DNA from: a virus
Strand: one strand, 5' to 3'
Length of the DNA: 37,640 nt
Virus genome (UHGV): UHGV-1707198
The notes under the pieces were generated by a model. That model did no database searches. It saw nothing but the letters and a program-made list of their open reading frames with translations, and was not told the DNA's origin. Positions 9,358-31,003 of this stretch are shown here, in pieces. The position numbers and the translations under genes were made by a program. Position 1 is the stretch's first letter; each line of letters opens with the position of its first letter.

Positions 9358-12300
9358 ATGTGGTACAGGGAAGGTACTATCACATTTACACAGGGCAGCA
9401 ATACTCTGGTTGGGGCAGGGACAGCCTGGAACGTAACAGCTAATGGTGTGTTGCCGGGGATGATCGTCATTGGCCCCGACAATAAGCTGTATGAGATCAA
9501 GCGCGTAACCAGTGATACGAACATTGTTCTCTCAGAACCCTATACCGGCGAAACTCAGTCTGAAGTTCCGTGCCGAATCATTACGACCTATGAAGGCGAC
9601 TTAACACAGTTTAGCGCGCGCTTTACAGCACTAATGTCGCGTATGTCGGCTGATTCCAAGTCCATGCGCAGTTGGTTGACTGCTCTGGATGAGGTGACAA
9701 TCGAGCGTGAAGACGGTACAGAAGTGACCGTTAAGCCGCTAATGCAGATCGTCAACGAGCACAACGAAAACGTTGAGTGGTATAAAAATAACACTGACGC
9801 GATTGATGCTGCTGGCGACAAAGCTCGTGAGGCGGCGGCCAGTGCTGCCGCAGCAGCAGAAAGCGCCAATACCGCTGGAGAAAAAGCCTCTCAAGCGTCT
9901 CAAAGTGCATCCGCTGCAGAGTCCTCAAAAAGCGCGGCGGCCACCAGTGCCGGTGCCGCGAAAACGTCTGAAACGAATGCTGCAGCGTCACAAAAATCTG
10001 CAGCCACTTCTGCATCCACCGCGACCACGAAGGCGTCAGAAGCTGCCACCTCAGCCCGGGATGCGGCGGCCTCAAAAGAGGCAGCGAAATCATCAGAAAC
10101 GAGCGCAGCCTCGAGCGCCAGTAATGCCGCTTCCTCGGCAACGGCGGCAGGAAATTCCGCGAAGGCGGCAAAAACGTCCGAGACGAACGCCAGGTCTTCT
10201 GAAACGGCAGCGGGACAGAGCGCCTCGGCTGCGGCAGGCTCAAAAACAGCGGCTGCGTCGTCTGCCAGTGCCGCGTCAACAAGTGCCGGGCAGGCCTCAG
10301 CCAGTGCCACCGCCGCCGGAAAATCGGCAGAAAGTGCCGCATCATCTGCTTCAACAGCCACAACGAAGGCTGGCGAAGCCACTGAACAGGCCAGCGCAGC
10401 AGCGAGGTCTGCTTCCGCAGCGAAGACATCCGAAACGAACGCGAAAGCGTCGGAAACCCGTGCAGAATCCTCAAAAACGGCAGCCGCATCGTCCGCCAGT
10501 TCGGCAGCGTCATCGGCATCATCTGCGTCTGCTTCAAAAGATGAGGCGACCAGACAGGCGTCAGCAGCGAAGGGCAGCGCCACGACGGCATCCACGAAAG
10601 CAACAGAGGCGGCAGGCAGTGCGACGGCAGCATCTCAGAGCAAAACTGCTGCTGAATCCGCTGCGACCCGTGCGGAAGCTGCTGCTGATCGTGCTGAAGA
10701 GATTGCCGGTGCAGTTGCGATGGAAGACGCAAGCCTTACAACTAAAGGTGTTGTGAAACTTAGCAGTGCTGTCGACAGCACCAGTGAATCGCTGGCCGCA
10801 ACGCCAAAAGCAGTTAAAGTAGTCAATGACAATGCGAACAGCAGGGTGCCATCTAACCGAAAAATTAACGGGAAAGCACTGACTGCGGATATCACATTAA
10901 CGCCGAAAGATATTGGTACTTTAAATTCAATAACGATGTCTTTCTCTGGCGGGGCCGGGTGGTTCAAACTGGCTACTGTTACAATGCCACAAGCGAGTTC
11001 CATCGTTTACATCGCATTGATTGGTGGCGCTGGTTACAACGTCGGCTCCCCACATCAGGCAGGCATTTCAGAACTGGTTCTACGAGCAGGCAATGGAAAC
11101 CCCAAAGGGATTACAGGTGCTTTGTGGAAGCGTACAGCTGTCGGATTAACGAATTTCGCCTGGATCAACACATCCGGCGATACATATGATATTTACGTTG
11201 AAATTGGCAATTATGCGACGAGTGTAAATATCCATTGGGATTGTACTGCAAATGCGTCAGTTTCTGTTTATACATCGCCAACATATTCAGCGAGTAAGCC
11301 TTCCAGCGTTACCGATGGTGTTGTTTATACGATGTATAGCACACATCAGAAACCGACGCCGTTAGATATTGGAGCACTGCCAACAACCGGAGGAACAGTT
11401 TCAGGTCCGTTGTCTGTTACTGGTGGGATCACCGGAACATTAAATGGTAATGCAAGTACAGCAACGAAATTGCAGACGGCAAGATCTATCGGTGGAGTTG
11501 GTTTCGACGGTTCTGCAAATATCAACCTTCCAGGTGTAAACACTACGGGTAATCAGAACACCACTGGTAATGCTGCAACTGCTACAAAACTTCAGACTGC
11601 AAGAAAAATATCCGGTGTTCCATTTGATGGTTCTACTGATATCACTTTAACCGCTGCGCATGTTGCCGCTTTCGCAAGAAGGGCAACAGGGTCATATGCG
11701 GATGCTGATGGTGGCGTGCCGTGGAATGCTGAATCTGGTGCTTACAATGTAACTAGAACAGGCGACAGTTATATTCTTGCCAACTTTTATACCGGTGTAG
11801 GTAGTTGCCGTACGCTTCAAATTAAAGCTCACTATAAAAATGGTGGTCTGTTCTACCGTTCCTCAAGAGATGGCTATGGTTTTGAAAGTGGTTGGGAGCA
11901 GGTTTACACGACTGGATTTATGCCTCAGCCGGCTGATATAAACGCACCAACCGCTGCCGCTGGATGGTTAAATAGTGGTAACGGAACGGCATTTACGACT
12001 GCTCAATTTATAACTTGGCTAAACAATCAGGGGGCATTTACAAACAAACATTGGATCGCACGGTGCTCATGGACTTACGCCAACAATAATTATATAGACG
12101 ACACTGGTTGCGGTAGGATCGATCTATCTGGTTCCGTGATTGAGGTGTTTAGTAATAAGGCAACAAGCCACTACACTATTCGTGTTACAACGACAACAAC
12201 ATCAGGTCATGGTGGTGTTAATAATGCGGAATTTATTTATGTGTACAATGGGAGTGATTATGCGCCAGGCTGGCGTCGTTCTTATAACACTAGAAACAAA

Positions 12301-13656
12301 CCAACAGCTTCTGATGTAGGAGCATTACCGCTTTCAGGTGGCACATTATCTGGAGGGTTGACGTCTTCTGGTGAGATCGTTTCAAAATATGCAAATGGTT
12401 TCCGCATTGCTTACGGTAACTACGGGTTCTTTATCCGTAATGACGGCGGCAGCACATATTTCATGCTAACAGCATCAGGAGATACGTTAGGTTCATGGAA
12501 CAGTTTGCGACCGATTATAATTAATAATAGCAGCGGTGTTGTGTCTATTGGTAATGGACTAAATGTTACTGGTGGCGTAAATGGTAGCTTGAATGGCAAT
12601 GCTTCAACAGCTACGAAGTTGCAAACAGCGAGAAACATCAATGGTGTTAAGTTTGATGGTTCAGGTGATATCAATATTAATACATTGGTTTCTCGTGGTC
12701 GAGTTACGGCTTTAAGCGGTTCTACTCAAGGTACTGCTGGCATTCAAATGTACGAGGCGTACAACAATAGCTACCCGACCACGTATGGCAACGTATTGCA
12801 CATGAAAGGTGCGAGTGCTGCTGGTGAGGGCGAGTTGCTTATTGGCTGGAGTGGTACGAGCGGTGCACATGCGCCGGTTTTCATTCGCTCCAGAAGAGAT
12901 ACCACTGATGCGGCATGGTCAGCGTGGGCGCAGGTATATACCGCTAAGGATTCAATCCCTGGTGTGAATACAACCGGTAATCAGAATACTACTGGTAATG
13001 CCGCAACAGCCACAAAATTGCAGACAGCAAGGAAAATTGCTGGTGTGGCGTTTGATGGCTCTGCCGATATTACTTTGACTGCGGCTAACCTTAATGCTTA
13101 TACGAAAACAGAGGTAACAAACCTTCTAAGTTCCTATGCAAGCAGATCATCACTGACAGGCTATAGTGGCAACCTGGATATTATTGCTGAAACACTGGTT
13201 GTCAAATCAGGCGGTAGTGGAGGGTTTGCTATATGGGATATTGGCACAACTACTAGCGGTGCCAATATGTACATTGATCCAAACCCAGGTATCAATACAG
13301 TTTGGCGTTCAACATCTTCAAGGCGCTATAAAAAGGATATTGAAACATTACAAGATCGATATGCTGATGAACTTTTGTCATTAAGACCTGTTTGGTATCG
13401 TTCAATTTGTCGAGGTGACCGAAAGGATTGGGGGTATTACGGCCTTATTGCTGAAGAGGTTGGTGAGATTGCCCCGCAATATGTCCATTGGCGTGAACCA
13501 ACAAATAATGATTCTCCAGGAGATATTTCCTCAAATGGTATGGTCGCTGAAGGAGTGATGTATGAGCGTTTGGTTGTACCACTCATTCATCATATTCAGC
13601 AATTGACCAAAAGGGTTGAGGAGCTTGAAACGAAGTTAAATTCACCTAAAGAATAA
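9358..13656 (+). CDS. side tail fibre protein with C-terminal S74-type intramolecular chaperone domain
   Basis: 1432 aa; GGAG ribosome-binding site. Ala/Ser/Thr-rich degenerate repeats (KTSETNA, SASAA) at residues about 160-460, like lambdoid Stf-type fibres as I recall them. Repeated GNASTATKLQTARxIxGVxFDGSxDI fibre motifs. C-terminus (DIETLQDRY...GLIAEEVGEIAPQYVHW) resembles the self-cleaving chaperone of T5 pb1 and endosialidase-type fibres. Confidence 0.8.
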   Translation: MWYREGTITFTQGSNTLVGAGTAWNVTANGVLPGMIVIGPDNKLYEIKRVTSDTNIVLSEPYTGETQSEVPCRIITTYEGDLTQFSARFTALMSRMSADSKSMRSWLTALDEVTIEREDGTEVTVKPLMQIVNEHNENVEWYKNNTDAIDAAGDKAREAAASAAAAAESANTAGEKASQASQSASAAESSKSAAATSAGAAKTSETNAAASQKSAATSASTATTKASEAATSARDAAASKEAAKSSETSAASSASNAASSATAAGNSAKAAKTSETNARSSETAAGQSASAAAGSKTAAASSASAASTSAGQASASATAAGKSAESAASSASTATTKAGEATEQASAAARSASAAKTSETNAKASETRAESSKTAAASSASSAASSASSASASKDEATRQASAAKGSATTASTKATEAAGSATAASQSKTAAESAATRAEAAADRAEEIAGAVAMEDASLTTKGVVKLSSAVDSTSESLAATPKAVKVVNDNANSRVPSNRKINGKALTADITLTPKDIGTLNSITMSFSGGAGWFKLATVTMPQASSIVYIALIGGAGYNVGSPHQAGISELVLRAGNGNPKGITGALWKRTAVGLTNFAWINTSGDTYDIYVEIGNYATSVNIHWDCTANASVSVYTSPTYSASKPSSVTDGVVYTMYSTHQKPTPLDIGALPTTGGTVSGPLSVTGGITGTLNGNASTATKLQTARSIGGVGFDGSANINLPGVNTTGNQNTTGNAATATKLQTARKISGVPFDGSTDITLTAAHVAAFARRATGSYADADGGVPWNAESGAYNVTRTGDSYILANFYTGVGSCRTLQIKAHYKNGGLFYRSSRDGYGFESGWEQVYTTGFMPQPADINAPTAAAGWLNSGNGTAFTTAQFITWLNNQGAFTNKHWIARCSWTYANNNYIDDTGCGRIDLSGSVIEVFSNKATSHYTIRVTTTTTSGHGGVNNAEFIYVYNGSDYAPGWRRSYNTRNKPTASDVGALPLSGGTLSGGLTSSGEIVSKYANGFRIAYGNYGFFIRNDGGSTYFMLTASGDTLGSWNSLRPIIINNSSGVVSIGNGLNVTGGVNGSLNGNASTATKLQTARNINGVKFDGSGDININTLVSRGRVTALSGSTQGTAGIQMYEAYNNSYPTTYGNVLHMKGASAAGEGELLIGWSGTSGAHAPVFIRSRRDTTDAAWSAWAQVYTAKDSIPGVNTTGNQNTTGNAATATKLQTARKIAGVAFDGSADITLTAANLNAYTKTEVTNLLSSYASRSSLTGYSGNLDIIAETLVVKSGGSGGFAIWDIGTTTSGANMYIDPNPGINTVWRSTSSRRYKKDIETLQDRYADELLSLRPVWYRSICRGDRKDWGYYGLIAEEVGEIAPQYVHWREPTNNDSPGDISSNGMVAEGVMYERLVVPLIHHIQQLTKRVEELETKLNSPKE
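11532..11660 (+). repeat. intragenic direct repeat copy A (fibre motif block)
   Basis: About 130 bp at roughly 80% identity to 12961..13090; both encode GVNTTGNQNTTGNAATATKLQTARKI(S/A)GV(P/A)FDGS. Confidence 0.7.
12961..13090 (+). repeat. intragenic direct repeat copy B (fibre motif block)
   Basis: Partner of 11532..11660; a third, shorter related copy lies at about 12590..12690. Confidence 0.7.
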
Positions 13657-18937: not shown

Positions 18938-18955
18938 ATTAAAGGATTGATACTA

Positions 18956-20650
18956 ATGGAATCGATAGAATCATTTCTAAAAAATTTTCTAGTTTCAGAT
19001 CATCGGGTTGCCGTCATAAAAGGAGATTGGGGCGTTGGTAAAACTCATTATTGGAATAGTTTTTATACTAAGCATTCTGAAGGATTAGATTTTAATGCAT
19101 ATTCGTATGTTTCTTTGTTTGGGGTTAACTCTATTGGTGATATTAAAAAAACTCTTTATCATTGTGCCACACCAATTAATGAAAAGAAATATAAAGAACT
19201 AATTTTATCTGAAACGGATCGAACTATGATTCGTTATAGAAATGGGTTTTGGGGATGGTTGAAATACAACTCCTTGTCAAAATTTTTAATACATTTCGGA
19301 AAGATCGATTTTTTTGGGTTCAAAACAGATAACCTGCTGTCATCTCTTGAGTATAAATTTGTTAATAATTATTTGGTTTGTATTGATGATGTTGAAAGAA
19401 AAGGTAATTCGCTAGAAGTTAAAGAAATTATGGGGGTAATTGATGAATTAGCAAGAAGAAAAGGTTGCAAAGTTGTTCTAATTTTAAATGAAGATAATTT
19501 ACATGATGAAACTGCAAAAAAACAGTTTTTAGAGTACAGAGAAAAAGTAATTGATGTCGAAATAAAATACGATCCTACGCCTGAGAAGAACTTACGTAAA
19601 GTTTTTTATGAAACTGATTCTGATTTTCTTTTGTTAAAAGTCTTAGCAAATGACTTAGGCATTAAAAATATCCGTATATTAAATAAAATAAAAACATCTC
19701 TGGTTAATCTTAGGAATGAGCTAAGCTTGGCAGAGGATAAGGTTAGAGAAAGCTTTATCAATAGATTGGTTCTGTTTTCAGTGGTTTACTATTCTGGTGT
19801 TCCAGGTGTTGATTATGCCTTGTTTAAAGAATCAATTAAAAACATACATGTATTTGATTACATGTTAGATGATAAAAAGGATGATTCTGTATATTCATTT
19901 ATTAATAGTCTTGATGTTATTTATGAACGAGCGGAAATTGCTTTCGATGATGACATAGATTTTTATCTCAAGAATGGTTATCTTTCTACTGAAAGCAATA
20001 TTCGAGGTATAATAGAAGAAAAAAATAAACAATATAAAGAACACAAGGCTTTATGTGATGTTAACAATGTTTGGGATATTTTTAGTGACTCATTCAAGGA
20101 CAATGAATCTGAGTTTATTTCTAAGATAAAATGTGTAATTAACGACAATCTTTCACACATACCTGTTGCTCACTTCATAGGCTTGATTGATATCTTAAAT
20201 AGATTGGAGATTGATTGTGATAGTTATATAGAGGCATATGCAGATGCCTTTGTTAGCCAAGATGATGCTTATACTGCTTTTCGGAATTTGTATGTAGAGA
20301 TATTTGGTAACGAAAAGTTAGGTCTGCTAATTCAAAAAAAATTGATGGATAAGAAGCCTGAAGAGACTAATTTAGAGAATGTTTTATACAAAATAATTGA
20401 AGGCAAATTTAATCATAGTGACATAGCATATCTTAACAGTTTCTCTGAAGATGATTATTTAAAGTGGATATTATCCCGCAATCAGGATGCTTTGGATTTA
20501 GTGAGAAAGGGGTTGCTCAGATTCAAAAGTATGCAAGAACTAACAGAAGAACAGCAAAAAATCACGAATAAAGCAATAGGTGCATTAACGAAACTGGCCT
20601 CTAGATCAAGTCTTAACAAACTACGTGTGAGCAGATTGCTTAATAATTAA
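18956..20650 (+). CDS. KAP-family-like P-loop NTPase
   Basis: About 565 aa from the ATG at 18956 (AAGGA ribosome-binding site 9 nt upstream). Walker A GDWGVGKT fits the G-x-W-G-x-GKT KAP signature; Walker B-like LVCIDDVER about 110 residues later. Strongly AT-rich and Lys/Asn/Ile-rich, unlike neighbouring genes. Confidence 0.55.
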   Translation: MESIESFLKNFLVSDHRVAVIKGDWGVGKTHYWNSFYTKHSEGLDFNAYSYVSLFGVNSIGDIKKTLYHCATPINEKKYKELILSETDRTMIRYRNGFWGWLKYNSLSKFLIHFGKIDFFGFKTDNLLSSLEYKFVNNYLVCIDDVERKGNSLEVKEIMGVIDELARRKGCKVVLILNEDNLHDETAKKQFLEYREKVIDVEIKYDPTPEKNLRKVFYETDSDFLLLKVLANDLGIKNIRILNKIKTSLVNLRNELSLAEDKVRESFINRLVLFSVVYYSGVPGVDYALFKESIKNIHVFDYMLDDKKDDSVYSFINSLDVIYERAEIAFDDDIDFYLKNGYLSTESNIRGIIEEKNKQYKEHKALCDVNNVWDIFSDSFKDNESEFISKIKCVINDNLSHIPVAHFIGLIDILNRLEIDCDSYIEAYADAFVSQDDAYTAFRNLYVEIFGNEKLGLLIQKKLMDKKPEETNLENVLYKIIEGKFNHSDIAYLNSFSEDDYLKWILSRNQDALDLVRKGLLRFKSMQELTEEQQKITNKAIGALTKLASRSSLNKLRVSRLLNN

Positions 20651-23036: not shown

Positions 23037-24218
23037 ATGAGCCTTTATGTTATATCAACATTTAGGTTGGTCACAATATTGCCTGTTAAAAGTGGAATTA
23101 TCGTGAGCGAGCTGAAAGAGCTAATTACCGAATTAGATTTTGAACAATGGTTGGATACTGAAGGTATCGTTTATCGACGTGGAGGCGTGAGTACTCGCGG
23201 TCGTGAAGTGAATATCAAGGAGTGTCCGGTATGCGGCAGCTCCAACTGGAAGGTATATTTCAATCTGACCAGTGGCGTCGGCAAATGCTTCGCTGGTGAT
23301 CATCCCGAAGAGATTCAGTTCAATAAGCTGGTCTTCCTCAAGCACTACAGCGGTAAATCACGACGACAGTTCGAGGAATATGTGCAGAACGCTCTTCTTT
23401 CCCAGGGGTGGGCACCAAAGAAAGAAGAGCTAGTGCTTGCAAGCACAGTCGAGTTAGAGGGGCCAGTTGCACTCCCTCGTCATTACGAGCTTCCTATAGA
23501 TGGCCGTCTTCCAGACTATCTGGTTGAACGAAACATATCACCTGAAATGGCAAAGTATTTTGACCTACGATACTGCGTCGAAGGCAAGCACGCTTATGTA
23601 GATCCGTATACAGATCAGGTAAAAGGGCAGATATTCGATATGCGAATACTGATACCGGTTTACGATCTGGATGGGGTAATGAAGACATTTCAGGGACGAG
23701 ACATTACCGGTACAGCAGAACGCCGCTACCTCTTTCCTATGCAGCTTCCAGCTTCAGGTAAGTTTCTCTACAACGGCCATAATGCAGTCGGCAAACAGAC
23801 TGTAGTTGTCTGTGAGGGGGCGTTCGATGTTATGGGGGTTAAACGAGCTATTTTTGACGAAGAAACATTACGTGATTACGTGGAACCAATAGGAACGTTC
23901 GGGATGCATCTATCTGGTAACACCACTCAGGATGCAGAAGATCAGTTAGGCGCGTTCCTGACGCTCAAGGCGCGTGGGTTACGTAATGTGATCATGATGT
24001 GGGATAGTGAAAAGCAAGCTATACGCAACACTATGGCCGCAGCCAGGCGACTGAGCAGTATTGGTCTTAATGTGAAAATTGCATGTTTGGGCGAGGAAGG
24101 ACTCGACCCCGGCGATGCGACCCCGGGGCAGATTATCAAAGCCTACTATTGCGCAAAACCTTACTCACGACAGCTTGAACTCTTAAGCAAGGTGAAAGGC
24201 ATTGCAGCACTAGTTTGA
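23037..24218 (+). CDS. DnaG-like DNA primase
   Basis: Cys/His zinc-finger-like motif CPVCGSSNW...CFAGDH and a TOPRIM-like VVVCEGAFD segment. Start uncertain: the ORF track begins at GTG 22965 inside a hairpin, so ATG 23037 or GTG 23103 is more plausible. Confidence 0.55.
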   Translation: MSLYVISTFRLVTILPVKSGIIVSELKELITELDFEQWLDTEGIVYRRGGVSTRGREVNIKECPVCGSSNWKVYFNLTSGVGKCFAGDHPEEIQFNKLVFLKHYSGKSRRQFEEYVQNALLSQGWAPKKEELVLASTVELEGPVALPRHYELPIDGRLPDYLVERNISPEMAKYFDLRYCVEGKHAYVDPYTDQVKGQIFDMRILIPVYDLDGVMKTFQGRDITGTAERRYLFPMQLPASGKFLYNGHNAVGKQTVVVCEGAFDVMGVKRAIFDEETLRDYVEPIGTFGMHLSGNTTQDAEDQLGAFLTLKARGLRNVIMMWDSEKQAIRNTMAAARRLSSIGLNVKIACLGEEGLDPGDATPGQIIKAYYCAKPYSRQLELLSKVKGIAALV

Positions 24219-25355
24219 ACCAGTATTAGTCACATACACATTGACCGAAAATGATTTAACTTCTGTATTGAAGTTGTCAGTCATTACCGCGAGGTAGGCA
24301 TTCTTGGTATCTCTGAATTGCTTCAGGATGATTTGAACGTTATCGGTGCAAACAAACGAGGTAGCCAGATTGCCTCCTTTCTCTGAAAAATCCTTCAGGA
24401 AGGTGCAGTCAACTTTGCCATCATTAGCGGTGAAGGTAGCATCATCACCCTGCCAGGTAAATGTAGCGTTAACGCCCTTATCAATGGATTTAGCAATAAG
24501 TCGCTGGGTGGCGGATTTTGTTTTGGCTTTGGAAGCCGGCGCTCGATATTTGCCGCTTTCTTTCAGTTCTGCAATGTAATCGCAGCCTCTTTTTTCTCCT
24601 TTATCGCAAGCAGTCTGATAAAGGTCGGCTGCTTTTTTATAGTCCTTTTTTACACCTTCCCCATTCTCATACATAATGCCAAGATTGGTTATGGCGTCGG
24701 CGTTTCCAAGTTCCGCTGCCTTTTTATACCACTTAACTGCTTCTGCATCATTGCGTTTAACGCCTAACCCATCATCGTATAGTATTCCTAATCCTATCAT
24801 AGCTTCTGAACTGCCTTGGTCTGCCGCCTTTTTGTAATAAGTAAAAGCCTTTTTATAATTCTTTTTAACGCCTTTACCATATTGGTAATACGCCCCAAGA
24901 ACTGAAGTTGCTTTAACATACCCGGCATCAGAGGCTAGTTTGAAGTATTTAATGGCGAGTGCATGATCTACTTTACCAAGCATCCCCTTTTGATAAATAG
25001 CACCAAGATTGTTGTAGGCTCTACCTTCACGAGCATCCCCCGCAAGTTTGTAGTACTCAACAGCTTTATTTAGGTCTTTATCTACACCCTCGCCAAATGT
25101 GTACATAACTCCAAGTGCATAATATGCTACTTTATCTCCCTTTTCTGCAGCTAGATCAATCCACTTCTTGGCCTCAACTACATCCTTATCAAAACCATTG
25201 ACACCATCAAAATAATTTGTACCTAACTCACTTTGTGCTGCGGTATCCCCTGCGGTAGCGGCTTCTATCAGCGTTTGTTTATTGTCTGCGTTAACGAATC
25301 CAGAGTTAAAAAGCAAAGTTAATGCCAGCAACGATGAAGATTTTATGTATTTCAT
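24210..25355 (-). CDS. secreted Sel1-like repeat (TPR-like) protein
   Basis: Start taken at MKYIKSS (plus-strand CAT at 25353..25355), giving a Sec-type signal peptide. At least six repeats of the form A..WYKKAAEQG...A...LG.MY..G.GV.KD, characteristic of Sel1-like repeats. Confidence 0.6.
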   Translation of the reverse strand: MKYIKSSSLLALTLLFNSGFVNADNKQTLIEAATAGDTAAQSELGTNYFDGVNGFDKDVVEAKKWIDLAAEKGDKVAYYALGVMYTFGEGVDKDLNKAVEYYKLAGDAREGRAYNNLGAIYQKGMLGKVDHALAIKYFKLASDAGYVKATSVLGAYYQYGKGVKKNYKKAFTYYKKAADQGSSEAMIGLGILYDDGLGVKRNDAEAVKWYKKAAELGNADAITNLGIMYENGEGVKKDYKKAADLYQTACDKGEKRGCDYIAELKESGKYRAPASKAKTKSATQRLIAKSIDKGVNATFTWQGDDATFTANDGKVDCTFLKDFSEKGGNLATSFVCTDNVQIILKQFRDTKNAYLAVMTDNFNTEVKSFSVNVYVTNTGSN

Positions 25356-25587
25356 GTTTTTTTTCTGTTGATATAGGATGAACAGTTTAGACGCGGCAAG
25401 CGTCAAGTGTGCGAAAAAGGGTACTTAAATTTAGTTAATATGTCAGCTTTGTTGATTTAGTTTATGGTCGGTAAAGTTACTGGGAAACTAATAACCATAA
25501 GAAATAGTACGCCATTTAATTATTGTGGCACTGCTCGTGTTTTGATTAACTAATACCTGCGATAAATATAAATAAAGGGAAGCCAAC

Positions 25588-26001
25588 ATGAGCAAAAATA
25601 AGCTGATTTTAACAGGAGCTTTATTGTCTTTGTTTGCTTTAGTGGGGTGTAAGCCTACAGACGAGAAGGCTATTGCTCTGGGCCAACAAGCAATTGCGGA
25701 TGATATGAAAGATCCCACGTCGGTGATGTTTAGGAAAGATAAGTTTGTCAGGACTGATCATGACGATGGGAGTGTGACAGGCTTTGTGTGCGGAGAATTG
25801 AACGCCAAAAATGGCTTTGGTGCATACGTGGGCTATCACTCATATGTTGTTGAACTCGAAATGAAGCCAAAGGGCATGTTTTCGAAAGGGGTGGTATACA
25901 AAATCCTATCGAAGTCGTTGGCACCTAATGATCCTCATGACTTACAGCGTTATAAGCAGGTCTACAGAAAGATGTGCAACAGCGAGGCTGTAGCTCATTA
26001 A
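25588..26001 (+). CDS. lipoprotein
   Basis: 137 aa; signal peptide with lipobox LVGC; AAAGGGA ribosome-binding site. Confidence 0.5.
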   Translation: MSKNKLILTGALLSLFALVGCKPTDEKAIALGQQAIADDMKDPTSVMFRKDKFVRTDHDDGSVTGFVCGELNAKNGFGAYVGYHSYVVELEMKPKGMFSKGVVYKILSKSLAPNDPHDLQRYKQVYRKMCNSEAVAH

Positions 26002-26008
26002 TGGTGAA

Positions 26009-26040
26009 TGCCGGGCAGACTATAAGCCCGGCATCTTCGT
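26009..26040 (+). terminator. rho-independent terminator
   Basis: TGCCGGGC-agactataa-GCCCGGCA followed by TCTTCGT. Confidence 0.45.
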
Positions 26041-26064
26041 ATAGGGAACTATTGCGCCTAAAAT

Positions 26065-26085
26065 GATAAGTAGATACATACTTAG
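26065..26085 (+). promoter_or_regulatory. recurrent motif, copy upstream of gene 26127
   Basis: GATAAGTA-gataca-TACTTAG. Confidence 0.45.
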
Positions 26086-30349: not shown

Positions 30350-30424
30350 GATGGTGTAGCTCAGCGGTAGAGCAGTTGGCTGTTAACCAACTGGTCGGTG
30401 GTTCGAATCCACCCACCATCGCCA
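30350..30424 (+). tRNA. tRNA-Asn (anticodon GTT)
   Basis: Cloverleaf folded by hand: acceptor GATGGTG/CACCATC, D-arm GCTC/GAGC, anticodon stem GTTGG/CCAAC with loop CTGTTAA, T-arm GGTGG-TTCGAAT-CCACC, encoded CCA. Confidence 0.85.
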
Positions 30425-30429
30425 ATTTA

Positions 30430-30516
30430 GGGGAGTTAGTCCGTAGAGGTAGCGGTGTAGACTGTAAATCTACTGTCATGGCGACTCGGGTGGTTCGACT
30501 CCATCACTCCCCACCA
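30430..30516 (+). tRNA. tRNA-Tyr (anticodon GTA), long variable arm
   Basis: Acceptor GGGGAGT/ACTCCCC, anticodon stem GTAGA/TCTAC with loop CTGTAAA, long variable arm, encoded CCA. Confidence 0.8.
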
Positions 30517-30520
30517 AATT

Positions 30521-30596
30521 GCCGGTTTAGCTCAGTTGGTAGAGCAGTCGTTTTGTAAGCGAATGGCCAGCGGTTCAAGTCCGTTAACCGGCACCA
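30521..30596 (+). tRNA. tRNA-Thr (anticodon TGT), probable
   Basis: Acceptor GCCGGTT/AACCGGC, D-arm GCTC/GAGC, T-arm AGCGG-TTCAAGT-CCGTT, anticodon loop TTTGTAA; the anticodon stem has one G-A mismatch and one G-U pair, so identity is less certain. Confidence 0.65.
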
Positions 30597-30604
30597 ACAC
30601 AACA

Positions 30605-30680
30605 GGTAAGAGCATTGGGCGAATCGGCGATACTGACCCACAAGGCCGTAAATCGATAGAGTCAGACCAGTGCTCTTACC
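30605..30680 (+). ncRNA. 76-nt hairpin element in the tRNA spacer (not a canonical tRNA)
   Basis: 10-bp terminal stem GGTAAGAGCA/TGCTCTTACC enclosing 56 nt; a hand-fold as a tRNA fails (no D-arm or T-arm pairing). Related stems occur at 30681..30739 and 30811..30912. Confidence 0.3.
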
Positions 30681-30916
30681 GTTGTGAGGAAGTGCAGCTC
30701 TTTGAAGCAACCAGAAGATAAGCATCTGGCTTCACAACACAACGATAATATCATTACGGTTAATCGTCGTTCATGTGCACAATGACTGGTCGAAAGGTAG
30801 TGATCTTACCATTGTGATGAATGCACAGGCTGATGTGCCGCAACTACAGTAGTGCGCGCTTTGCGGGGCTTGCTACAACCCTGTGTCGGAGTTCAGCACC
30901 GACCATCACAATAGCT

Positions 30917-31003
30917 GGAGAGTAGGGAGCATGGTGCTCAAGCGGTCTTGAAAACCGTCCCATTGTGCAAACGATGATGGTTCGATTCCATTACTCTCCG
31001 CCA
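30917..31003 (+). tRNA. tRNA-Ser (anticodon TGA), long variable arm
   Basis: Acceptor GGAGAGT/ACTCTCC, anticodon stem-loop GCGGT-CTTGAAA-ACCGT closely resembling E. coli tRNA-Ser(UGA) as recalled, T-loop TTCGATT, encoded CCA. Confidence 0.75.

Follow-up and report, generated by a model that had tools for sequence, protein, structure and literature searches.

The lambdoid morons, represented by lom and bor of phage lambda and gp15 of phage HK97, are single genes that some genomes have and close relatives lack; their products are envelope proteins, and replication does not depend on them. HK97 gp15 is a superinfection-exclusion moron that sits between the tail chaperone and tape-measure genes. 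Exclusion is also the function of several phage lipoproteins, namely Cor (phages phi80, N15 and HK022), Llp (T5) and Ltp (Streptococcus phage TP-J34), the last of which targets the tape measure protein. Among proteins with Sel1-like repeats, LpnE and EnhC of Legionella and Hcp of Helicobacter are host-interaction proteins. The Klebsiella protein Sel1E, which consists of a Sel1-repeat region and a C-terminal extension of unknown structure, protects Escherichia coli from VgrG4, a type VI secretion system (T6SS) effector (PMC7108748). Here we analyze a stretch of viral DNA of 37,640 nucleotides (UHGV virus genome UHGV-1707198, hereafter the window), in which a gene for a predicted exported Sel1-repeat protein and a gene for a small lipoprotein diverge from each other beside the primase gene of an E. 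coli SSU5-like phage-plasmid.

Considering their general properties, the two genes are new members of an already known type of gene, and the label of exported morons given to them in a first, sequence-only reading is right. Like the lambdoid morons they are single genes for envelope proteins, missing from close relatives and not needed for replication. They differ from these morons in having no sequence relation to Bor, Lom or gp15, in their position within the replication module of a phage-plasmid, and in their non-canonical promoter and terminator signals. Homologues of the lipoprotein gene occupy the same site between chaperone and tape-measure genes as HK97 gp15, one of them with its own terminator. 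With Cor, Llp and Ltp the lipoprotein shares its small size, a predicted periplasm-facing position and a link, at the level of its family, to tail, receptor-binding or tape-measure genes, whereas no homology to these proteins was detected and its predicted fold is cystatin/NTF2-like. The Sel1 protein resembles EsiB, the protein of PDB entry 6ok3, HcpC, PA5087 and Sel1E in repeat architecture, export and the terminal cysteine pair of the last repeat, but it is phage-borne and carries an extra beta-rich C-terminal domain of ~100 amino acids (aa). Both genes are dispensable, independently mobile among temperate phages and under purifying selection, and neither is required for replication of the phage-plasmid or for virion production. 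We lean towards regarding them as two independent, horizontally mobile single-gene morons lodged in a hot spot of SSU5-like elements, acting in the envelope and most plausibly protective.

The flanks of the two-gene region are ~96% identical to the Escherichia phages Cyrano and CMS-2020a, both of which match the window in two pieces with the two-gene region absent between them; the identity of the flanks to Salmonella phage SSU5 is 80%. The region itself matched 190 plasmid records, 55 of them over its full length. These plasmids are almost all non-mobilizable E. coli plasmids of ~110 kb (for example pECOH89), and the closest, pGD31-F25, is 99.8% identical over the two-gene region. Among 5426 complete E. 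coli genomes the region was present in 62, always on a plasmid and never on the chromosome, so that the prophage setting assumed in the sequence-only reading has to be replaced by that of a phage-plasmid.

Junction alignment defines the insert listed in Table 1. In the empty state, found in Cyrano, p009_B and many E. coli plasmids, only 75 bp separate the primase gene from the next conserved gene. No direct or inverted repeats and no att-like sites flank the insert. The G+C content of the two genes is 0.36-0.41 vs 0.46-0.49 in the flanks, and the stop codon of the Sel1 gene (24210-24212) lies in a 9-bp overlap with the end of the convergent primase gene, which is identical in Citrobacter and Enterobacter plasmids. 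We distinguished five states of the site. Besides the empty one, the Sel1 gene stands alone in Citrobacter and Enterobacter plasmids (an orthologue of 417 aa with seven repeats) and in E. coli pRM13322 (an allele of 345 aa with five repeats); both genes are present in the window and in p22AR0322A, the latter with a seven-repeat Sel1 allele; a 60%-identical lipoprotein gene stands alone in another SSU5-like contig (L010); and an unrelated open reading frame (ORF) fills the site in Salmonella SSU5 (SSU5_041, contig L002, 3023-3988; 321 aa) and in S. Typhi pHCM2 (contig L005, 4921-5973; 350 aa), on the minus strand like the Sel1 gene. No signal peptide was detected in this ORF, nor did Pfam, NCBIfam or PADLOC provide a match, which implies that the hot spot is not limited to exported proteins. 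Since each of the two genes holds the site alone elsewhere, they are independent modules sharing a landing site and not a functional pair; the earlier description of a divergent pair is thus correct for their orientation, over a spacer of 232 bp, and not for their function. Over many alleles the ratio of nonsynonymous to synonymous substitution rates (dN/dS) is 0.04-0.22, indicating purifying selection on both genes.

The view that these are exported morons outside phage replication therefore finds support in the export signals, the absence of the block from close functional elements and the low G+C content, and the occurrence of each gene alone, at classical moron sites of unrelated temperate phages, agrees with the term moron. 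In a plasmid of E. fergusonii (NZ_CP056969.1), a transposase of the IS1 family of insertion sequences (IS) is annotated inside the Sel1/lipoprotein locus, which suggests occasional inactivation of the locus.

Table 1. Positions of the features of the two-gene region in the window.
Feature	Position	Strand	Basis
Hot-spot insert (~1.85 kb), absent from empty-site relatives	24219..26062		Junction alignment vs Cyrano and p009_B
Sel1-repeat protein, coding sequence, 381 aa	24210..25355	-	ORF list, Pfam, phrog_8741, PGAP
Predicted Sec (signal peptidase I) signal peptide MKYIKSSSLLALTLLFNSGFVNA, codons 1-23	25287..25355	-	Hydropathy and motif analysis; kept in orthologues
Sel1-like repeat solenoid, residues 24-266	24558..25286	-	AlphaFold2; PDB matches
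Orphan C-terminal domain, residues 283-381, ~100 aa	24213..24509	-	Conservation; predicted beta-rich
Promoter-like element of the Sel1 gene, CTGACA-17 nt-TACCCT	25419..25447	-	Sole block conserved upstream of all Sel1 orthologues
Lipoprotein, coding sequence, 137 aa	25588..26001	+	ORF list, phrog_2320, homologues, AlphaFold2
Lipoprotein signal peptide with lipobox L-V-G-C, codons 1-21	25588..25650	+	Motif analysis; family consensus L-x-G-C
G+C-rich hairpin, weak non-canonical terminator candidate	26009..26033	+	Free energy (dG) -17.9 kcal/mol, z=-2.5

The plus-strand gene encodes a predicted lipoprotein, as previously proposed from the ORF list. Its N-terminus reads MSKNKLILTGALLSLFALVG/CKPT (the slash marks the cleavage site), with a canonical lipobox LVG/C at residues 18-21, and an AAGGGA ribosome-binding site lies ~7 nt upstream of the start. 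In E. coli the sorting of lipoproteins is governed by the '+2 rule'; the residue after the lipidated cysteine is Lys and not Asp, which predicts an outer-membrane lipoprotein. The protein matches phrog_2320 (E=1.9e-39), its dN/dS is 0.04-0.06, and neither Pfam nor NCBIfam nor PADLOC gave a match; its PHROG matches are all of unknown function. A sequence search of the PDB gave no match. The AlphaFold2 model (predicted local distance difference test, pLDDT, 88) combines an antiparallel sheet of four strands with two helices, one of them C-terminal, and it resembles cystatin, NTF2 and VirB8-like structures at the level of the fold only (Z <=7.2, identity <=13%). Membership of the cystatin protease inhibitors was rejected, given that the QxVxG hairpin is absent and the conserved motifs KDPxS and NAKNxFGxYxG lie in other loops. 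A fold search of BFVD with the model returned weak matches to uncharacterised phage proteins alone.

An exhaustive HMMER search (E <=0.001) placed the lipoprotein in a family of 1346 representative clusters at 50% identity, mostly lipoproteins of 105-140 aa; a word-indexed search gave four relatives. The family is defined by the motifs KDPxSxxFR and G-x-VCGxxNAKNxFGxYxG and by a C-terminal cysteine, with D42, G69, N75, Y80 and G82 invariant, C68 and C130 near-invariant, and the lipobox consensus L-x-G-C kept throughout. No Pfam domain model matched the 50 members tested, apart from the lipid-attachment signature LPAM_1 in two of them, and peptidoglycan-binding domains of the SPOR or SH3 type are present in addition in a few of the longer proteins. 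Relatives are encoded on at least 426 viral contigs, and the family reaches phages of Pseudomonas, Acinetobacter and Paracoccus.

The gene neighbourhoods of the family were counted over the best 80 viral loci, four of which are phage-plasmids of the same type as the window. In 41 the homologue follows the tail chaperones and directly precedes the tape-measure gene in the same orientation, and in a further 13 it is found within or beside the M/L/K/I/J tail-tip cluster. At 12 loci it adjoins ogr at the ends of P2-like prophages; phage SEN5 has it next to the integrase gene, and contig L012 next to genes of the host. One contig (L042) has a canonical terminator after the homologue, just before the start of the tape-measure gene, and such a terminator inside a tail operon is the signature of a moron that has entered a late operon. 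In several siphophage-like prophage contigs (among them L025, 3236-3793, and L034, 3226-3798) a second inserted gene, which matches phrog_129 (annotated as a transcriptional regulator), is located between the tail chaperones and the lipoprotein homologue, implying that the gap between chaperone and tape-measure genes can hold stacked morons.

The Sel1-repeat protein is encoded on the minus strand in an ORF spanning 24210..25406. A longer product starting at TTG 25406 was ruled out, and the ATG at 25355 was chosen because the orthologues and the PGAP annotation of pGD31-F25 use the same start, the latter giving the same 381-aa coding sequence. The repeats proposed in the sequence-only reading were confirmed by the Pfam model Sel1 PF08238, which scores far above its gathering threshold (178.2 bits vs 30.7 bits, E=1.1e-53) over six matched stretches; we count six or seven repeats, and phrog_8741 matches over the full length (E=3.8e-211). 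The signal peptide that had been proposed is likewise predicted by hydropathy and motif analysis, with a basic n-region (MKYIK), a hydrophobic core (SSSLLALTLLFNSGF) and a V-x-A cleavage motif (VNA/D) consistent with Sec export; the mature protein would begin with DNK. No second hydrophobic segment was detected in the mature protein by hydropathy analysis.

AlphaFold2 predicts an alpha/alpha solenoid of 14 helices with pLDDT >90 over residues 24-270, terminating in a CDKGxxxGC cysteine pair (C250 and C258). The protein matches 36 Sel1-repeat chains of the PDB, the best being 6ok3 (E=8e-90) and the second-best EsiB of E. coli (4bwr, E=9.3e-65); HcpC of H. pylori (1ouv) is also matched, and PA5087 (5jkp, E=1.6e-12) and PA5086 (5jjo, E=9.3e-11) are matched weakly. 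After a short linker follows the disulphide-containing C-terminal domain, with the invariant cysteines C317 and C336, for which profile searches of Pfam and the PDB gave nothing significant. Against NCBIfam the protein has sub-threshold repeat-level matches alone (MerG, MotX, AlgK and ExoR), and a PADLOC match of PtuA to a Sel1 repeat (22 bits) was judged spurious.

Full-length Sel1 orthologues, with both repeats and C-terminal domain, are restricted to Enterobacterales. Scanning 185,579 species genomes with a profile of the C-terminal domain recovered only five loci (Escherichia whittamii, Pantoea, two in Leclercia and Pseudenterobacter), and a word-indexed homologue search with this domain gave four relatives. 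The two parts of the protein evolve differently: identity to homologues is 66-100% in the C-terminal domain vs 49-60% in the repeats, and among E. coli alleles dS is 0.14-0.18 (dN/dS 0.03-0.07) in the former vs 1.5-2.4 (dN/dS ~0.13) in the latter, with five, six or seven repeats according to the allele. High dS in the repeats together with low dS in the C-terminal domain indicates exchange of the central repeat cassettes between alleles: recombination has placed old, divergent cassettes on a C-terminal domain and flanks that the alleles came to share recently.

Beyond the phage-plasmids, Sel1 orthologues were found at the end of a lambdoid prophage, directly after the tail-fibre genes, in a small chromosomal islet between yciB and tonB, and on a Pantoea chromosome. 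E. kobei has an IS-adjacent Sel1 fragment of 156 aa in the vicinity of prophage tail genes, and this fragment recurs next to P2-like tail genes on a read-assembled contig. In Pseudenterobacter timonensis (contig L090, 4211-11894) the chromosomal orthologue is embedded in a cluster of orphan toxin fragments from the CdiA C-terminus (Fil_haemagg_2, PT-VENN), together with small ORFs that may encode immunity proteins, a gene for a NERD protein and transposase genes.

Upstream of the Sel1 gene, the element CTGACA-17-TA(a/c)CCT is found ~65-90 nt before the start codon and is kept even at 56% protein identity, in Citrobacter and Enterobacter; from this conservation we infer that it is the Sel1 promoter. 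A sigma-54-like TGGCAC in the spacer was rejected, since GC is lacking at the -12 spacing and p22AR0322A does not share the motif. The lipoprotein gene had been credited with its own terminator. The hairpin does exist, with a stem of 8 bp, and is kept in p22AR0322A, but it is followed by AUCUUCGUAU instead of a U-tract. Downstream of it, at 26067-26084, a perfect inverted repeat (TAAGTA-gataca-TACTTA) followed by TGTAAGAATA closely precedes the next plus-strand gene (26127). The repeat is kept in all the SSU5-like elements compared, including the empty-site plasmids and Citrobacter, and together with TGTAAGAATA it looks like the operator and promoter of the downstream replication-module genes.

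Taking the two proteins as protective morons, both genes would be expressed in the lysogen from their own promoters, and both products would have their site of action in the periplasm or on the inner side of the outer membrane. For the lipoprotein, the linkage of its family to tape-measure and tail-tip genes, the predicted periplasmic location and the fusions to peptidoglycan-binding domains make the blocking of phage entry the best guess; by analogy with the lipoproteins Cor, Llp and Ltp and the HK97 gp15 moron it would most likely stop incoming phages at the receptor or at the genome-injection step. The Sel1 protein, with a conserved docking domain and swappable repeat cassettes, may be a periplasmic binder of a variable incoming protein. 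It would most likely serve as a scaffold whose variable repeats capture an envelope-acting protein of an incoming phage or competitor, while the conserved C-terminal domain would dock to a constant component of the cell. In a more far-reaching version, which we put forward tentatively and consider rather doubtful in its entirety, the lipoprotein family would be a new class of superinfection-exclusion factors of Gram-negative temperate phages that act on the tape-measure/tail-tip injection machinery, the Sel1 protein a cassette-swapping periplasmic decoy or immunity protein, and the primase hot spot a landing pad for envelope-defence genes. Action on the injection machinery would explain why most copies of the lipoprotein gene sit beside the tape-measure gene.

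Two other readings assign the proteins a role in host biology. An effect on an animal host, as the sequence-only reading had considered, would amount to lysogenic conversion, in which the Sel1 protein acts like EsiB, which binds secretory immunoglobulin A, or like Hcp, LpnE and EnhC, and the lipoprotein like Bor/Iss in serum resistance. The rank of EsiB among the solved relatives, the match to HcpC and the presence of blood, urine and diarrhoea isolates among the sources of the carrier plasmids would fit such a role. However, the likeness is confined to generic repeats, and EsiB and Hcp have no counterpart of the conserved C-terminal domain. Soil, wastewater, chicken, pig, cattle and gull are further sources of the carriers, and Pantoea, Leclercia and Pseudenterobacter have members of the Sel1 family too. 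The lipoprotein family, for its part, extends to phages of Pseudomonas, Acinetobacter and Paracoccus, and its link to genes for the tail and for injection favours phage exclusion over an animal host. With no specific support found for it, we regard an animal-host function as unlikely. The Sel1 protein could alternatively be an orphan immunity protein that guards the host from competitors by neutralizing a periplasm-acting interbacterial toxin, in the manner of the Sel1-repeat proteins that give immunity to T6SS effectors, PA5086-PA5088 of Pseudomonas and Sel1E of Klebsiella. This is a serious rival for the Sel1 protein, even though we assign it a small probability: a predicted periplasmic Sel1-repeat protein with weak matches to PA5087 and PA5086 would suit it, the layout is similar, by description, to that of Klebsiella Sel1E (PMC7108748), orphan cdiA-CT toxin modules surround one of the chromosomal orthologues, and the exchange of repeat cassettes fits an arms race. 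Yet a neighbouring gene for a T6SS effector (vgrG, PLD or other) was found neither in the window nor in 10 other contexts examined, and the match to known immunity proteins is far weaker than that to other Sel1 proteins. Moreover, CdiA-CT toxins are normally paired with small, cytoplasmic immunity proteins.

That the lipoprotein serves the lytic cycle of the phage itself, for example by shielding progeny virions from receptor-bearing debris or through a link to lysis or peptidoglycan, is suggested by homologues that lie within clusters of tail genes and share their strand at no fewer than 54 of the 80 best viral loci, and by the SPOR and SH3 fusions of some members. We nevertheless consider this improbable, in view of the absence of the gene from closely related viable phages and plasmids, the position of the window copy in the replication module, the canonical terminator upstream of the tape-measure gene in L042, which is typical of a self-contained moron, and the copies of P2-like prophages at the prophage end by ogr or beside integrase or host genes. 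Decay of the ORFs into non-functional remnants, already disfavoured, would agree with the truncated and IS-disrupted copies, but it is very hard to reconcile with the low dN/dS over many alleles, the full-length conservation across genera and the confident model of the lipoprotein, and is highly improbable.

Several results weigh against our reading of the two genes as protective envelope morons. Regarding expression, the spacer yielded no sigma-70 promoter in a consensus scan, with the CTGACA element below threshold, and the terminator scan did not call the hairpin at 26009-26033, which is non-canonical. AlphaFold2 performs poorly on the C-terminal domain of the Sel1 protein (pLDDT ~50), and neither protein fits any PADLOC defence model. 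The lipoprotein gene of the window is far from the tail genes, in the replication module, and a comparison of the presence of the Sel1 and lipoprotein genes with the tail-fibre allele gave a negative or uninformative result, the fibres of the carriers being different and highly mosaic. Literature searches turned up nothing on these genes in SSU5-type elements or on a phage protein with Sel1 repeats that mediates exclusion. Among 50,697 phage records tblastn gave 14 matches to the lipoprotein, none of them in a phage that is known to carry cor, llp or gp15, an indirect comparison that did not set Cor and Llp against the lipoprotein one to one. Since no homology to known exclusion lipoproteins was detected, the exclusion role is purely a matter of analogy in location and compartment.

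In the wider surroundings, the window encodes a lambda-like tail module, ParA-like and KAP-type nucleoside triphosphatases (NTPases), a DnaB-like helicase, the primase, two conserved hypothetical proteins and an ATP-dependent ligase; the insert lies between the primase gene and the next gene of the replication module. The gene at 18947-20650 encodes a protein of 567 aa with a weak match to the KAP family of P-loop NTPases (24.9 bits for the whole protein vs a cut-off of 20 bits, with no single stretch passing it), which PGAP labels 'P-loop NTPase fold protein'; its 3' part falls to ~30% G+C, and the gene could be a further acquisition with a cargo or defence role. Four clustered tRNA genes (Asn-GTT, Tyr-GTA, Thr-TGT and Ser-TGA) are located at 30350-31001 on the plus strand; ARAGORN called four and Rfam three. 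The tail-fibre gene (9358-13656) is highly mosaic among otherwise similar plasmids, and its C-terminal 1.86 kb is covered to at least 80% in only 20 of the 265 matching records.

Enterobacteriaceae from clinical and animal sources commonly harbour SSU5-like phage-plasmids, whose cargo alters the fitness of the host. The present analysis defines a cargo hot spot beside the primase gene with at least five alternative contents, one of which belongs to a widespread, uncharacterised family of phage lipoproteins tied to tail and injection genes; this family is the most useful lead. If the proteins are not protective, the two genes would be ordinary accessory genes, which already carry the annotations 'tetratricopeptide repeat protein' and 'hypothetical protein'. 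An exclusion effect of the lipoprotein, if true, would constitute a new exclusion mechanism, and protection of the envelope, if true, would affect host range in phage therapy as well as competition among gut Enterobacteriaceae.

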